A DNA stretch of 64,000 bases from Opitutia bacterium. GTDB taxonomy: Bacteria > Verrucomicrobiota > Verrucomicrobiia > Opitutales > Seribacteraceae. The position numbers and the translations under genes are program-made. Each line of letters opens with the position of its first letter. Within the stretch, counting starts at the first letter, position 1. The stretch covers positions 1,446 through 65,445 of the forward strand of contig JAYNJW010000008.1 in the NCBI GenBank assembly GCA_038110535.1. The letters are read 5' to 3'. Below, in pieces: positions 44,419 through 49,045 of the stretch. Under the pieces are notes generated by a model. It made no database searches. It had not been told where the DNA came from and saw nothing but the letters and a program-made list of their open reading frames with translations.

Positions 44419-44961
44419 ATGGAAAACAATGTCCTTCCTCTGATCCTTCTGCTTGTTGTTAGTATCTCGGGTTGTGGATTTAAGGGTAAGCCAGCCACCC
44501 ATGCAGTGGAACGACCAATTATCTACGATGCTTGGGATGCTCGCTACTCCTATCAAATGGAAACCAGGCGCATGGTGCCGATGCACCAAGGTAGGCAAGT
44601 GGGAAGAACCTGGGGAAGAGATGAGAGTGGAAAGATCAACCACGCAAATTACCTTTCTAGTAATCAGGAAAATGAAGAAGACTTGTTCGTGCTCCATTCC
44701 AAGGAATTAGACCGCAAGAGAGAAAAAAAATGGGAAAGCTCCAAAGGGCAAAGGATTGATTTTATCAAAAACCAAATGGAGATCTTGGAAGAAGAAGAAA
44801 ATGCTCCCCTTGTTGAAGTGCTGATCGAGGAGGAAGAAGACGAATTTTTCCCTCCGGTATTTATTCCTCAGGGCATCGATCTTACTCCCGAAGAAAATCC
44901 TGCAGGCAATGAGAATGCCCAAGACATTCCTCCTGCGTTTCCTTTTGCACCCTTGCCCTGA
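44419..44961 (+). CDS. lipoprotein of unknown function (AWDARYSY family, copy 1)
   Basis: Lipobox VSISGC, conserved AWDARYSY (44530-44553), and an acidic C-terminal tail ending in EFFPP...PPAFPFAPLP. Paralogous to 48111-48656. Confidence 0.7.
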   Translation: MENNVLPLILLLVVSISGCGFKGKPATHAVERPIIYDAWDARYSYQMETRRMVPMHQGRQVGRTWGRDESGKINHANYLSSNQENEEDLFVLHSKELDRKREKKWESSKGQRIDFIKNQMEILEEEENAPLVEVLIEEEEDEFFPPVFIPQGIDLTPEENPAGNENAQDIPPAFPFAPLP

Positions 44962-44970
44962 GAGGTAAAG

Positions 44971-45816
44971 ATGAGCAAGCTTTCGGTCAGTTTAAATGTG
45001 CTTGCTTTAGTGATCAGCCTTGTTGCGTTCGTTCTTACCCAAATTACTGTATCTGATCACCAAAGCAAAATGCATAAAATTGCAACTCTTGAGCAAGCAA
45101 GGATGGATGCAGGAAAAAAACTGGAGGAGCAAAAAAAAGAGACGGTTTCAAAGCTACTTCGCCAAAAAAGTCGAAATCAGGATTTGGCGGAGGAGATTTT
45201 GGAATATCGAAGCACCTCGGAAGAAGTCGCAGAAAAGCTTGCCTTAACCAAGACTGAAATCAGTGAGATTGAAAATTCAATTGATGGTATAAGTGATCAG
45301 CTAGCAACTTCGGTAGACAGGCTCAAAGAGGCCGGGGAGGAATTAACCCAGCAGCAAGCGGAGATACAAAATCTTCGCAAAGAAATTCCTGGGATTGAAC
45401 AACAAATTGAAACCAAAAACTTTGAAATTCGTGATTTTGAGAATCGTTCGGACGATCTTAGCGTGCGATTGAGAGTTTTTTCCTCTATAACCTCAGTTTT
45501 GCGCCAACATTACTTGGATACAGTCAGCGCAATCCGTTCTTATGCCCGGGAACGACCCTGGCTGGAACCCGGGGAAGCATTGAGCATCCAGTTAGGGCCG
45601 ATTGATTTAGCCTCCGGATATATCGCCTTATCTAAGGGCGGGGAAATCGGGCTGCGAGAGAATATGGTATTTGCTATTCGTGCGGCTGGGGAAGAAATTT
45701 CCCAAATACGTATTAAAAAAGTGTTCAGAACTTATTCGTTGGCTGAAGTAATACCTTTAGTGGGGAATCCGTTGAAGCTCCAATCCGTTAAAGAAGTTGA
45801 TCTCGTTGCTCTTTAG
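44971..45816 (+). CDS. bitopic coiled-coil protein with small C-terminal beta-rich domain (copy 1)
   Basis: N-terminal TM (LNVLALVISLVAFVLTQI), about 170 aa of heptad-rich Glu/Lys/Gln sequence, and a C-terminal GEALSIQLGPIDLASGYIALSKGGEIGLRENMVFAI domain. Confidence 0.7.
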   Translation: MSKLSVSLNVLALVISLVAFVLTQITVSDHQSKMHKIATLEQARMDAGKKLEEQKKETVSKLLRQKSRNQDLAEEILEYRSTSEEVAEKLALTKTEISEIENSIDGISDQLATSVDRLKEAGEELTQQQAEIQNLRKEIPGIEQQIETKNFEIRDFENRSDDLSVRLRVFSSITSVLRQHYLDTVSAIRSYARERPWLEPGEALSIQLGPIDLASGYIALSKGGEIGLRENMVFAIRAAGEEISQIRIKKVFRTYSLAEVIPLVGNPLKLQSVKEVDLVAL

Positions 45817-46720
45817 AATTTTTTCCGCGGCATTGCTGGGAGGAGCGGTTACTTATTATGTAATGAACCAGGACGCGTTCGAGTCACTGGACGATCGTCT
45901 GCTCGCCGAAACAAAAAGATTAAAACAAGTGGAGTTATTAATTGAGGAAGAGTCCAATGCAAGTGAGGCAAATATGACTGATTTACTGAAAATTAACCGA
46001 GAATACCGCAAAGAACTTGAGCTATTGGAAGAGAATAGCGAAGGAGCGAGAGACGAGTTAAGTTTCCTGCTTCCCAAAATTAAAAGTCTAAAAGAGCAGT
46101 TAAGCACTGCGGAACAGGAACTTAGGGCAGAGGAAGAGAAAATAAACCAAGTTAAACTTAAAACAGCTGCGGAGAAGGATAAATTGCCAGCATTAGCAAA
46201 TCAGAAAGAAGATGCCCTGGCAAAGTTGAATGAGGTTTCGCAATTTCATGCTAGTGCTGAAGAGAACTGGAGAAGGCTGGATCAGAACTTTTCTTCCCTA
46301 AGCCGGGTCAGGGAGACTGCTCGGGAAACTTACACGAATGCAAAAAATCCCTTGATGGAAGAAATTATCCGTCCATTTGAGGTTTTTTATGGAGATTCAA
46401 TTGAGGTGCAAATTGATAGCGTTTCGAGGAAAGAAAAAGGATTTTTTATCAAACTCGGTTTAGAGAAAGGAATCCGTTCAGGCTTTGTCTTTCTTATCCA
46501 AAAAGATGAGAATTGGTATGAGATGCCCGAGTTTGTGATCTGTTCATTAGCGGAAAAAAACTATTCATTTTTAAAAATGATTCAGGTAAAGGAAGGAAGA
46601 AATCCCTCATCTTTTCAAGTTGGAGAAAAACTAACCTTGATCCGTTCGGCAGAATTAACTAATGCTATCGATTCTTCCAATTTTAACAACGAGAAGACCC
46701 TATCCCAAACCGATCTTTAA
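45797..46720 (+). CDS. bitopic coiled-coil protein with small C-terminal beta-rich domain (copy 2)
   Basis: The TTG start overlaps the upstream gene by 20 nt. TM (LLFRIFSAALLGGAVTYYV), long coiled coil, and C-terminal GDSIEVQIDSVSRKEKGFFIKLGLEKGIRSGFVFLI domain. Same architecture as 44971-45816. Confidence 0.65.
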   Translation: MISLLFRIFSAALLGGAVTYYVMNQDAFESLDDRLLAETKRLKQVELLIEEESNASEANMTDLLKINREYRKELELLEENSEGARDELSFLLPKIKSLKEQLSTAEQELRAEEEKINQVKLKTAAEKDKLPALANQKEDALAKLNEVSQFHASAEENWRRLDQNFSSLSRVRETARETYTNAKNPLMEEIIRPFEVFYGDSIEVQIDSVSRKEKGFFIKLGLEKGIRSGFVFLIQKDENWYEMPEFVICSLAEKNYSFLKMIQVKEGRNPSSFQVGEKLTLIRSAELTNAIDSSNFNNEKTLSQTDL

Positions 46721-46731
46721 AAACCGATCCT

Positions 46732-47343
46732 ATGAGTTCCCCAGATTCTGAGCAGATTACTGATGAAGCTTTAGCTTCTAGCATATCTGACGATGGAAGA
46801 CTTTCCTCCGATGCTTTTGCGGGAGAAGAAGAAGGAATTGTAGAGGCTGGCATTCCACCTCCAACCCATGACTCATCCGATGATACCGAGTTAGATGAGG
46901 AGGTTTTTTCCGCGGATGATTTTGATTCGGATATGTTGGCTGATCCCAAGGCTGAGCCTGCCTCTGCCCAACCAGCCTTGGAGGAACCTCCCCTTGAAGG
47001 TGTAGGGGAAGTTCCTGCTCCTCTTGATGAAGTTTCCCAGACCGTAAAAAAGCCGGTTACGAATTTACCCGATGGGGAAGTTGCGGAGTTTCGCAAAACA
47101 TTATCTGCACTTTCTCGACAACTTGAAATTGACCGACTTACTTTCTTATACCAACAACTTCAGGCCGACGGGAACGAATTACCACCTCTGGAACGAATTG
47201 CATCCGATATCAAAGGGGATGCAACCCTGCACCCGTTGGGAGACCAAGATCTGTATTCCAAGAGACCTTTGGCTAGGTTGCAGGGATGGATATCCGGACT
47301 TTCTTTTGGAGTCGGGCGTCGGGCCAAGAAATTTTCCCGTTAA
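46732..47343 (+). CDS. acidic, probably disordered protein with helical C-terminal third
   Basis: 203 aa. The N-terminal 110 aa are rich in Asp/Glu/Ser/Pro. The C-terminus (FRKTLSALSRQLEIDRLTFLYQQLQ...) looks structured and ends in a basic tail. Confidence 0.55.
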   Translation: MSSPDSEQITDEALASSISDDGRLSSDAFAGEEEGIVEAGIPPPTHDSSDDTELDEEVFSADDFDSDMLADPKAEPASAQPALEEPPLEGVGEVPAPLDEVSQTVKKPVTNLPDGEVAEFRKTLSALSRQLEIDRLTFLYQQLQADGNELPPLERIASDIKGDATLHPLGDQDLYSKRPLARLQGWISGLSFGVGRRAKKFSR

Positions 47344-47363
47344 TTTCTCCCTCACGAAGGGAA

Positions 47364-48107
47364 ATGAAGAAGGGTTGTGATTATTCAGTCATCATTCCAG
47401 CTCATAATGAAGCAGAATATTTACCTGCAACCTTGGAGGCACTAGAGCAAGCAGGAAACGACTTACTATACCTAAATGGAGAGTGCATTGTGGTTGATAA
47501 CCAATGTACAGATGCCACCCCTGAGGTGGCAAAGAGGTTTGGTTGCAGAGTGGTGCAAGAACCAGTCCGTCAAATTTCCAAGGTTCGAAATACAGGAGCT
47601 GGAGCTGCTCATGGTACTTACCTGATCTTTGTGGATGCGGATACGATCGTGCCATCCTCCACTTTTAGTCAGGCTCTACAAGCATTAGAAAGTGGTGAGT
47701 TCGCGTGTGGGGGAGCAAGGCTGAGCTTTGATCAAAATTACGGAAGGTGGTTTTCTGGTAAATGCCTCCCTGCATTGTGGAACTTTATTTCTGCGAAGTT
47801 ACACTTGTTTGCGGGAAGTTTTATTTTTTGCAGGAGTGAATTGTTTTTTCAATGTGGTGGATTTCCAGAGACACATTATGCGGGGGAAGAAATTATTCTT
47901 TCAAAAAAACTAAAAAGAGCGTGCAAAAAGAGTGGGAAAAAGACCTTGGTTATTTCCTCGCCCTCGGTGATCTCATCAGCCAGAAAATTATTGTGGTATA
48001 GTGACTGGTCGATCCTGAAAATGATTCTTCCACTAGTCGGAATTCCTTTTTTTTTGAGAAGTCACCAAGCCTGCAGGTTTTGGTATAAACGACCAACAAA
48101 GGATTGA
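47364..48107 (+). CDS. family 2 glycosyltransferase
   Basis: YSVIIPAHNEAEYLPATLEAL, VVDNQCTD and FVDADT (DxD). ATG at 47364 preceded by GAAGGGAA. Confidence 0.88.
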   Translation: MKKGCDYSVIIPAHNEAEYLPATLEALEQAGNDLLYLNGECIVVDNQCTDATPEVAKRFGCRVVQEPVRQISKVRNTGAGAAHGTYLIFVDADTIVPSSTFSQALQALESGEFACGGARLSFDQNYGRWFSGKCLPALWNFISAKLHLFAGSFIFCRSELFFQCGGFPETHYAGEEIILSKKLKRACKKSGKKTLVISSPSVISSARKLLWYSDWSILKMILPLVGIPFFLRSHQACRFWYKRPTKD

Positions 48108-48110
48108 TTT

Positions 48111-48656
48111 TTGGTCAATCTTTGCATTGTAATGATATTTGCTATGTTGGCGGAGGTTTCAAAATATGCGTTTTTGCTAGTGGTTGCCCTGGCCTTTTGC
48201 TCGTGTGGTAGGAAAATATCTCATTCAACCCAAGATAAGCTTGAGGGTACTTCTCCAAGCGGCCGACCACCTGCCTATGTGCAAAAGGCATGGGATGCCC
48301 GTTATTCCTACGATGCGGATCGCAGACTTCTTGTTCCCCAATATGCTGGTTCAAGATGGGGTGCGGTCCAGCAATATAAGGAGGAAGGCGAACTAGTTTA
48401 CCAGGATTGGTGGATCAGGGATGTTCGATCCGAGGATCTCGAGGCATCTCCCGATACTACGATCACATCCTTTCTTAATGAGGATGGAAACCTGACCCTG
48501 ATCCCTCAAGAGTCAGAGGATCCGTTTGCGGAGGCAAATAACACGGGAGACGAGGCAGCGAATGCTATCGATCCTGAGACAGATGAGGCAGAATTCCCTC
48601 CATCTCTAGGCGAATCAGAGGACCCTTTTGTTCCCTCTCCTTTTTCTCCCTTTTGA
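48111..48656 (+). CDS. lipoprotein of unknown function (AWDARYSY family, copy 2)
   Basis: Lipobox LAFCSC, AWDARYSY at 48288-48311, and an acidic tail ending in AEFPPS...DPFVPSPFSPF. The start may be ATG at 48132 or 48144 instead of TTG at 48111. Confidence 0.7.
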   Translation: MVNLCIVMIFAMLAEVSKYAFLLVVALAFCSCGRKISHSTQDKLEGTSPSGRPPAYVQKAWDARYSYDADRRLLVPQYAGSRWGAVQQYKEEGELVYQDWWIRDVRSEDLEASPDTTITSFLNEDGNLTLIPQESEDPFAEANNTGDEAANAIDPETDEAEFPPSLGESEDPFVPSPFSPF

Positions 48657-48661
48657 TGTTT

Positions 48662-49045
48662 CTAGTATTTTTTGATCTCCCCAATCGAGGCAAATAAAGG
48701 GGGTGGTTCATAATCGTCCTCATCCGTTCGCTCTGGTGGAGAAGGTGCGGTTTTGAGATTTGGTAAAGTGCGTGGCGCATGCTTGGTTGGGGGAAAAGAA
48801 GGAGAGGGGTGAGTTTTGGGTCTCGAGATAGTGGATTGGGAAGGATTAAGTTTTTTCCTCGATCCCTTTTTTTGGTTTAAGGCACCCACAGATCGAAGCC
48901 ATACCCGCCCGACCAGAATATCATCATCGTCATTGATGAATTCCCGGAGTTGTTCCCATTTAATTTTGGCAAAACATCCAGCCCCCTTGGTTTTGCCGCT
49001 GCCAATTTTCCGAGGCGTTCCATCTTTATTTAAGGTTACTCCCAT
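48662..49045 (-). CDS. hypothetical basic/Pro-rich protein
   Basis: 127-aa ORF with a Lys/Gly-rich N-terminus (KDGTPRKIGSGKTKGAG) and a Pro-rich C-terminal half. Convergent with the lipoprotein gene (5-nt gap). No recognised family. Confidence 0.45.
   Translation of the reverse strand: MGVTLNKDGTPRKIGSGKTKGAGCFAKIKWEQLREFINDDDDILVGRVWLRSVGALNQKKGSRKKLNPSQSTISRPKTHPSPSFPPTKHAPRTLPNLKTAPSPPERTDEDDYEPPPLFASIGEIKKY

Follow-up and report, generated by a model that had tools for sequence, protein, structure and literature searches.

The closest described counterparts of the proteins considered here are MreC (PF04085), a bitopic protein in which a coiled coil follows the transmembrane (TM) helix and is joined to a small barrel of weakly similar fold, and the barrels of FlgT and TsaP (3w1e, 8z5n, 3jc8), which belong to flagellar H-ring and type IV pilus basal bodies. 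Lpp and TolA-Pal, known as spacers or tethers of the cell envelope, offer a purely functional analogy in their long periplasmic alpha-helix, lineage-conserved length and lipoprotein partner. The stalk of MreC is much shorter than the stalk of ~165 amino acids (aa) described below, and FlgT is not known to have a long stalk.

Here we consider a locus at positions 44419-48656 of the window, that is, the whole stretch of 64,000 nucleotides (nt) of contig JAYNJW010000008.1 that was analyzed, from a metagenome-assembled genome of a marine Opitutales bacterium (2.3 Mb, 94.9% complete). It carries six co-directional genes, encoding two lipoproteins (A1 and A2), two TM-coiled-coil-barrel proteins (C1 and C2), an acidic protein (Ac) and a family-2 glycosyltransferase (GT2), which a preliminary description had put forward as the best candidate for a wholly uncharacterized multi-gene system. 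We find instead that the locus combines one family's version of an envelope module that occurs throughout the phylum and is so far undescribed with a second lipoprotein unit, to which position alone links it. C1 and C2 are no orphans, belonging to a family found across Verrucomicrobiota that has its own partner lipoprotein, and A2 is part of a separate unit. The features concerned are the following (positions in the window, except for the last):

44419-44961, forward strand: A1, a predicted lipoprotein of 180 aa (open reading frame, ORF)
44530-44553, forward strand: octapeptide AWDARYSY of A1 (codons GCT TGG GAT GCT CGC TAC TCC TAT)
44971-45816, forward strand: C1, a bitopic protein of 281 aa (ORF, AlphaFold2 model, heptad register)
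45797-46720, forward strand: C2, a C1 paralogue of 307 aa with a TTG start and a short acidic tail (ORF, hhalign)
46732-47343, forward strand: Ac, an acidic protein of 203 aa (ORF)
47286-48107, forward strand: GT2 ORF; probable start at 47364, in agreement with relatives, giving 247 aa (PF00535)
48111-48656, forward strand: ORF of A2, a predicted lipoprotein and A1 paralogue; probable ATG at 48144 (ORF, BLASTP)
48288-48311, forward strand: octapeptide AWDARYSY of A2 (codons GCA TGG GAT GCC CGT TAT TCC TAC)
48662-49045, reverse strand: X127, a small basic protein of 127 aa on the strand opposite to A2 (ORF, neighbor of A2 in relatives)
G000:C6:16761-18116, reverse strand: C3, the canonical stalk-barrel paralogue of 451 aa, outside the window (hidden Markov model [HMM] of C1, E=4.7e-11)

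The wider family emerges from searches with the C1 profile, which matches proteins of ~250-320 aa across Verrucomicrobiota with both stalk and barrel aligned. Across 16 loci, the C1 HMM matched both parts in 18 proteins (full-sequence E between 1e-4 and 1e-15), and in a 19th protein (L088) the match is one stretch across the barrel region. C1 and C2 follow the same plan as the family at large: an N-terminal TM helix, then a coiled coil (~165 aa), then a homologous small beta-barrel at the C-terminus. A Pfam scan of ten family members found no domain in any. Directly 3' of the stalk gene, 15 of the 16 loci encode a lipoprotein of 48-76 aa with a ...PW(N/S)xPxxWE...PG motif, and so does the C3 locus of the window's own genome; in the window block, A1 lies upstream of C1 instead. 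An HMM of this mini-lipoprotein, run on the window genome, found C6:16584-16742 only and detected neither A1 nor A2, and the idea that these two are enlarged forms of it was accordingly set aside.

C3 has a ~170-aa insertion after its TM helix and is followed by the 52-aa lipoprotein (MKILLPIILCIVAFSLSGC...KPANWEYSLPGG) and then by rsmI (pair at G000:C6:16584-18116, reverse strand). All 8 of the family's genomes that were tested contain C3, whose conservation far exceeds that of the window copies (identity 96-40%, vs. 70-23% for C1/C2). Other Opitutales families carry the order ilvD-pgi-C-lipoprotein-rsmI near sod-tadA-infA-cysK, so that the canonical stalk gene lies near the same neighbors as the window block, which puts the block at the ancestral site of the stalk gene. 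Judged by these profile matches, C1 and C2 are extra, fast-evolving copies of an unannotated phylum-wide family whose canonical pair is kept elsewhere in the genome. The module of stalk-barrel protein and lipoprotein is undescribed, having no Pfam, NCBIfam or PDB entry, and a literature search returned no publication on the family (the genus description only). Tandem duplication of the stalk gene has occurred in other lineages too (L079, L080, L088). In seven non-Opitutales Verrucomicrobiota loci (L078-L082, L087, L090), a single-TM peptide of 40-44 aa ending ...PS(V/I/L)WP is encoded between the stalk gene and the mini-lipoprotein, its gene overlapping the stop of the stalk gene by ~14 nt. 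In another verrucomicrobial genome, the S10 ribosomal operon includes a 222-aa family member (L085:7340-8008, reverse strand), flanked by rpsS and rplV and with no mini-lipoprotein downstream.

Compared as single sequences, C1 and C2 are recognizably similar (BLASTP E=1e-4), and their family profiles align almost without gaps through the stalk (hhalign probability 98%, E=2.5e-13, 262 columns). The AlphaFold2 model of C1, built from 16 homologues, reached a mean predicted local distance difference test score (pLDDT) of 85.6 and consists of one continuous helix (residues 2-192) and a six-strand beta-barrel (203-280), with the TM helix at about residues 5-27 and the coiled coil running on to residue 192. 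C2 has the same TM, stalk and barrel plan, so the layout first proposed for the two proteins is borne out by both the model and the profile alignment. The heptad register is unbroken over ~120 residues in both. The TM helix of C2 is preceded by Arg and followed closely by five acidic residues and one basic residue, which fits a predicted N-in/C-out topology. Length is constrained: the stalk alignment contains zero indels in 14 congeners, and C1 measures 281-283 aa in the orthologues of g1, g14, g15 and a further genome, G824, at identities down to 23% (in G824 it has exactly 281 aa at 23% identity to the window C1).

The two lipoproteins are likewise paralogues, as first suggested, and their similarity survives proper alignment (BLASTP E=2e-10, 28% identity over 99 aa); given these BLASTP and profile alignments, the A1/A2 and C1/C2 paralogies are both real and old. 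Each protein has a signal peptide followed by a lipobox (ISG|C in A1, FCS|C in A2), the Cys of which (Cys19 in A1) is invariant in 13 A1 and 13 A2 sequences, in keeping with the initial assignment; neither has Asp at position +2 after it. The octapeptide AWDARYSY was correctly placed and is indeed written with different codons (five synonymous differences across the eight), but its invariance is limited to the two window paralogues, the consensus of the A family being W-x-A-[RK]-[YHF]-x-Y. Similarly, the x3-RR-x2-VP pattern said to follow it in both proteins is found in A2, and A1 has x4-RR-x-VP.

A1 is made up of a folded core of ~65 aa, a basic helix and an acidic Pro/Phe tail with a C-terminal FPFAPLP motif, and the core and tail motifs are kept in 13 congeners; A2 has a well-conserved core of ~75 aa and an acidic tail with a C-terminal PFVPSPFSPF motif. 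The Pro/Phe-rich tails carry net charges of -15 (A1) and -14 (A2), and the C-terminal motif is conserved in both. An AlphaFold2 model of the shared core (24 sequences, pLDDT 86) shows a short helix bearing the W-x-A-R-Y motif and a five-strand antiparallel sheet, to which A1 adds the long basic helix. Foldseek found no PDB fold match for this core at E<0.5, the top matches being OspA-like single-layer sheets, and among 1.84 billion representative proteins the A-core profile found 81 clusters only. Two giant proteins that matched this profile weakly (P0122 and P0126) are unrelated repeat proteins.

A1 stands directly upstream of C1 in all lineages holding C1. In G824, the A1 orthologue (L139:12349-12603, reverse strand) is 84 aa long and consists of lipobox and beta-sheet core only, lacking the basic helix, the acidic tail and the C-terminal motif, so the tail of A1 is dispensable in at least one lineage. 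A2 is the older and more widespread type, as the distant relatives P0119, P0121 and P0127 are A2-like in sequence. These three and two other distant A2-like lipoproteins (P0056 and P0075) have long tails (150-300 aa) rich in Pro, Gly and Ala, in which NPFGAPPP, DPFPAPP or ANPFAP recurs many times. The single PF-x-P motif at the C-terminus of the window proteins looks like a minimal version of this long-tail repeat, and the (D/N/F)PF(A/V/G)P motifs ending A1 and A2 look like putative short docking motifs.

Ac lacks a signal peptide. The N-terminal half of the protein is acidic (net charge -26) and disordered and contains the motifs SDEELA and EEPFSxDDF, and its conserved C-terminal domain (~95 aa) has a basic, amphipathic-looking end, ...RLQGWISGLSFGVGRRAKKFSR. 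The protein has no Pfam, NCBIfam or PDB match; its relatives form 363 clusters at 90% identity, all of ~200 aa and all named hypothetical, and a search of 300 genomes from the same class but not from Ca. Seribacteraceae yielded none. In every lineage with C1/C2, Ac sits between C2 and GT2.

GT2 is a family-2 glycosyltransferase by its PF00535 match (E=1.3e-23, 84.2 bits vs. a cut-off of 23.3), and it has a hydrophobic segment toward the C-terminus, where the protein ends in a conserved C(R/S)FWYxRP. The more specific TIGR04283 (arsenosugar/mftF-like glycosyltransferase) scored 93.2 bits, below its equivalog cut-off of 182. Orthologues with 41-46% identity, about as high as for those of the sister genera, are present in at least seven other Opitutales families, with no A, C or Ac gene adjoining; one of them adjoins cysK. 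In one congener (G018), the GT2 orthologue (L012:3240-3998, reverse strand) carries two indels of 1 nt, a deletion near nt 110 and an insertion near nt 423, which put ~100 codons out of frame and introduce three stop codons; the gene otherwise has 96% DNA identity to a sister genome and its neighbors are intact, so that it may be either a pseudogene or an assembly error.

The genus, described by Wilkie and Orellana (2025; as cited in PMC12714770), includes Ca. Chordibacter and belongs to the marine Opitutales family Ca. Seribacteraceae. The block is present in 18/18 congeners, and the entire region sod-tadA-infA-cysK-dtd-mpg-[block]-X127-pgi-ilvD is syntenic among them; because the whole neighborhood is kept, synteny at genus level says nothing about function. 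The six ORFs lie where they were first placed. The gaps from A1 to A2 are, in order, 9, -20, 11, 20 and 3-36 nt (the first four at most 20 nt, as claimed, the last depending on the start of A2), the gap of 20 nt between Ac and GT2 following from the start at 47364, and the 20-nt overlap of C1 and C2 recurs in congeners. The co-directional string begins well upstream of A1, with infA-cysK-dtd-mpg at gaps of no more than 71 nt, and a scan of the locus for sigma-70 promoters and terminators gave nothing above shuffled expectation.

Beyond the genus, the six genes resolve into two neighboring units: A1-C1-C2-Ac, with GT2 always adjoining, and a separable A2 unit. A profile of A2 run over the order found it in 14/251 genomes and 3/113 genera, all of one family (f1, Ca. 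Seribacteraceae). The sister genera g14 and g15 have dtd-(mpg)-A1-C1-C2-Ac-GT2, and A2 comes only after an oxidoreductase gene (Gfo/Idh/MocA) on the opposite strand and the gene of a 157-aa lipoprotein. In the loci of P0119, P0121 and P0127, the A2-like gene lies between the oxidoreductase/small-lipoprotein pair and an X127-like gene, beyond which a MotA_ExbB protein is encoded, together with two TM-coiled-coil proteins and one protein of 425 aa; near these three A2-like genes there is no gene for C, Ac or GT2. G824, the genome that holds P0127, does carry the block (cysK-dtd-mpg-A1-C1-C2-Ac-GT2), on a different contig from its A2-like gene. In the window genome (94.9% complete, as noted above), neither the MotA/ExbB cluster nor the small lipoprotein has a homologue, and the direct junction of GT2 and A2 thus results from gene loss in a streamlined genus. 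A2 is thus a paralogous lipoprotein of the adjacent unit, together with X127, and abuts GT2 only in this small genome. Co-conservation across genomes, proposed at the outset as a check on the six genes, holds for A1-C1-C2-Ac-GT2 in the family and in G824 and fails for A2; GT2, for its part, also occurs elsewhere without the block. The locus is a caution for annotation as well, in that an apparent six-gene operon arose by deletions that joined separate units in a 2.3-Mb genome.

The curated sets used for family assignment were Pfam, NCBIfam, PADLOC and PDB sequences. Scans of the six proteins against the first three gave GT2 plus coiled-coil noise only, and searches of PDB sequences, made with the GT2 sequence and with profiles of C1, C2, Ac, the A core and the barrel, gave no significant match, so the original statement that A1, A2, C1, C2 and Ac have no curated family stands. 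A resemblance of C1/C2 to MreC or to membrane-fusion proteins had also been suggested; what remains of it is a weak fold match of the barrel to MreC and FlgT. With the C1 barrel, Foldseek returned an LPHT-ring chain, MreC, FlgT and the N-terminal barrels of V1/F1-ATPase at E between 1e-3 and 3e-2 (best, 8z5n_0 at 1.4e-3; MreC 2j5u_A at 1.4e-3, 7eft_A at 1.1e-2 and 2qf4_B at 1.5e-2; FlgT 3w1e at 6.5e-3), and the barrel sequence profile against PDB gave TsaP at E=0.085 and MreC 2qf4 at E=0.11. These matches point to a generic small barrel, probably a resemblance of fold and not membership of a family.

MreC differs from C1/C2 in having two barrels where they have one, and no mre context surrounds them. 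Neither protein matched PF04085 at E up to 1, and hhalign gave the barrel profile a probability of 0.1% against the genome's own MreC; nor do C1/C2 replace that protein, as the true MreC is encoded at G000:C1:82674-83132 (99.5 bits) and no mre genes lie beside C1/C2. Barrels of the FlgT/TsaP type give the best Foldseek matches, but all scores are below significance and the window locus has no flagellar or pilus genes; one stalk-barrel relative showed a hint of FlgT_C at E=0.01. An HlyD-type membrane-fusion adaptor was rejected on the grounds that TIGR01843 (E=0.13) matched the coiled coil only and that the AlphaFold2 model has a single helix with no hairpin. PADLOC gave only coiled-coil noise against SMC-like models (LmuB, JetC), and anti-phage defense was likewise set aside. 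The canonical module of stalk-barrel protein and mini-lipoprotein shares with the window block the TM helix, the long coiled coil, the homologous barrel and the adjacent lipoprotein gene; the window block differs in that its lipoprotein precedes the stalk genes and belongs to a larger, distinct family (A), in that Ac and GT2 are added, and in that it coexists with the canonical pair and does not replace it. To Lpp and TolA-Pal there is no homology, and relative to Lpp the polarity is reversed, the window stalk having its predicted anchor in the inner membrane and the lipid anchor being borne by a separate small protein; no peptidoglycan-binding domain was detected.

The reading that we favor, tentatively and at slightly less than an even chance, is that the locus is a Seribacteraceae elaboration of the Verrucomicrobiota envelope module, in which the stalks of C1 and C2 pair and their barrels engage A1. 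Because their genes overlap, C1 and C2 would be made in equal amounts, and they would pair in register to form a parallel coiled coil of ~165 residues, ~24 nm long (~165 extramembrane residues at ~0.148 nm per residue), which is comparable to the width of the Gram-negative periplasm. Such in-register pairing is suggested by the gene overlap, the equal and indel-free stalks and the near-invariant length of C1. With its N-termini in the inner membrane, the coiled coil would bring both barrels close to the outer membrane, where they may bind A1, and perhaps A2, through the beta-sheet core of the lipoprotein or its C-terminal (D/F)PF(A/V)P motif. The lack of Asp at +2 predicts sorting of A1 and A2 to the outer membrane (by an E. 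coli rule that may not hold for Verrucomicrobiota), and this, together with its constant position directly upstream, its reduction to the core in G824 and the analogy with the canonical pair, makes A1 the obvious candidate partner. Built in this way, the complex would form a strut or tether across the envelope, with the cytoplasmic Ac and a membrane-associated GT2 on the cytoplasmic side, either of which might possibly participate.

Several observations weigh against this strut: the barrel resembles known folds only weakly (Foldseek E between 1e-3 and 3e-2; sequence profile E of 0.085 or more); no homology is detectable between A1 or A2 and the canonical mini-lipoprotein, which limits the partner analogy to gene position; the stalk varies in length across the phylum (barrel start at ~190-235), and with the far longer C3 this does not bear out a universal ruler; and the whole neighborhood is syntenic in the family, making adjacency weak evidence of function, quite apart from the dependence on the E. 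coli +2 rule. A bolder version, in which a trans-periplasmic connector of Verrucomicrobiota uses a stalk of constrained length, anchored in the inner membrane, and a barrel that captures an outer-membrane lipoprotein, with the Seribacteraceae having a second, heteromeric C1/C2-A1 form coupled to Ac and GT2 on the cytoplasmic side, seems to us rather unlikely. If true, it would provide a lineage-specific strut able to set the intermembrane distance or to pass information across the envelope. The envelope architecture of the PVC (Planctomycetota-Verrucomicrobiota-Chlamydiota) group, Verrucomicrobiota included, is poorly understood, and the stalk-barrel family with its dedicated lipoprotein is a testable candidate for connecting or spacing the membranes; the Seribacteraceae block is a natural experiment on it, in which a stalk whose length is strictly maintained has been duplicated and is accompanied by two novelties, a lipoprotein family bearing short C-terminal PF-x-P motifs and an acidic protein of the cytoplasm.

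The locus could also be a positional mosaic, produced by streamlining within a housekeeping neighborhood, in which only A1, C1 and C2 cooperate and Ac, GT2 and A2 have unrelated roles. The string does begin with infA-cysK-dtd-mpg inside a region syntenic from sod to ilvD, GT2 orthologues stand alone in other families (once beside cysK) and GT2 has two frameshifting indels in one congener with intact neighbors, and in g14/g15 an opposite-strand gene comes between GT2 and A2, which in G824 is found on a contig of its own, apart from the block. Yet Ac is found between C2 and GT2 in every lineage with C1/C2 and in none without them, the gaps are at most 20 nt, and A1 and A2 still have the core in common and C-terminal motifs of a similar kind; on balance we regard a mosaic as improbable, though by no means negligible. 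A glycosyltransferase with a C-terminal hydrophobic segment, set among periplasmic coiled coils and lipoproteins, further recalls the layout of polysaccharide co-polymerase/outer-membrane polysaccharide export (PCP/OPX) systems, in which case GT2 would make a lipid-linked sugar, C1/C2 would resemble co-polymerases and A1/A2 outer-membrane export lipoproteins. This we think very unlikely, since none of the six proteins has a Wzz, Wza or Poly_export domain, no flippase, polymerase or transporter (such as an ATP-binding cassette exporter) is encoded between 41 and 52 kb of the window, GT2 orthologues exist without the other block genes, and A1 can be as small as 84 aa. Moreover, in the loci mapped no glycosyltransferase adjoins the canonical C and mini-lipoprotein genes; one locus has a weak GT2-like match ~2.7 kb downstream. 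Of the trans-envelope interpretation put forward earlier, the periplasmic scaffold with its lipoprotein therefore remains the best reading, and the polysaccharide machine falls away, as no link to export was found.

A scaffold for cell-wall synthesis or division of the MreC or FtsB type would account for the order of TM helix, coiled coil and barrel and for the presence of MreC (2j5u, 7eft, 2qf4) among the best Foldseek matches and of 2qf4 in the barrel profile search. It has little to recommend it once the failure of the MreC profiles, the bona fide MreC elsewhere in the genome, the single barrel, a stalk ~3x that of MreC and the absence of mreB, mreD, pbp2 and rodA nearby are set against it, and we give it only a slim chance. 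We think just as poorly of the proposal that the locus is the remnant of an energized Tol/Ton/Mot-like system, in which a MotA/ExbB stator, its coiled-coil subunits resembling ExbD, had the A lipoproteins as its partners in the outer membrane, the stator being lost in the genus and its place taken by C1/C2 or others. In its favor, A2 is followed in g15, and also on three contigs of more distant relationship, by X127 and then by the MotA_ExbB gene, the two TM-coiled-coil genes and that of the 425-aa protein; adjacency is the sole evidence, however, the stator cluster lies on the far side of the opposite-strand X127, and the window genome keeps a well-conserved A2 with no homologue of the stator or its partners.

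The genes beyond A2 deserve mention in their own right. X127 reads TLNKDGTPRKxGSGKTKGAGCF... and, further on, VSRVWLRS or ILVGRVWLRS, with an acidic tail added in some relatives; it has no Pfam or NCBIfam match and accompanies A2 in every lineage examined, including distant contigs without the C1/C2 block. The stator-like cluster that follows A2 and X127 in relatives (L046:10672-13836, L135:10739-15334, L134 and L136) encodes a MotA/ExbB protein of 355-377 aa, TM-coiled-coil proteins of ~330 and ~365 aa and the 425-aa protein, and could itself be an undescribed stator-type envelope system.

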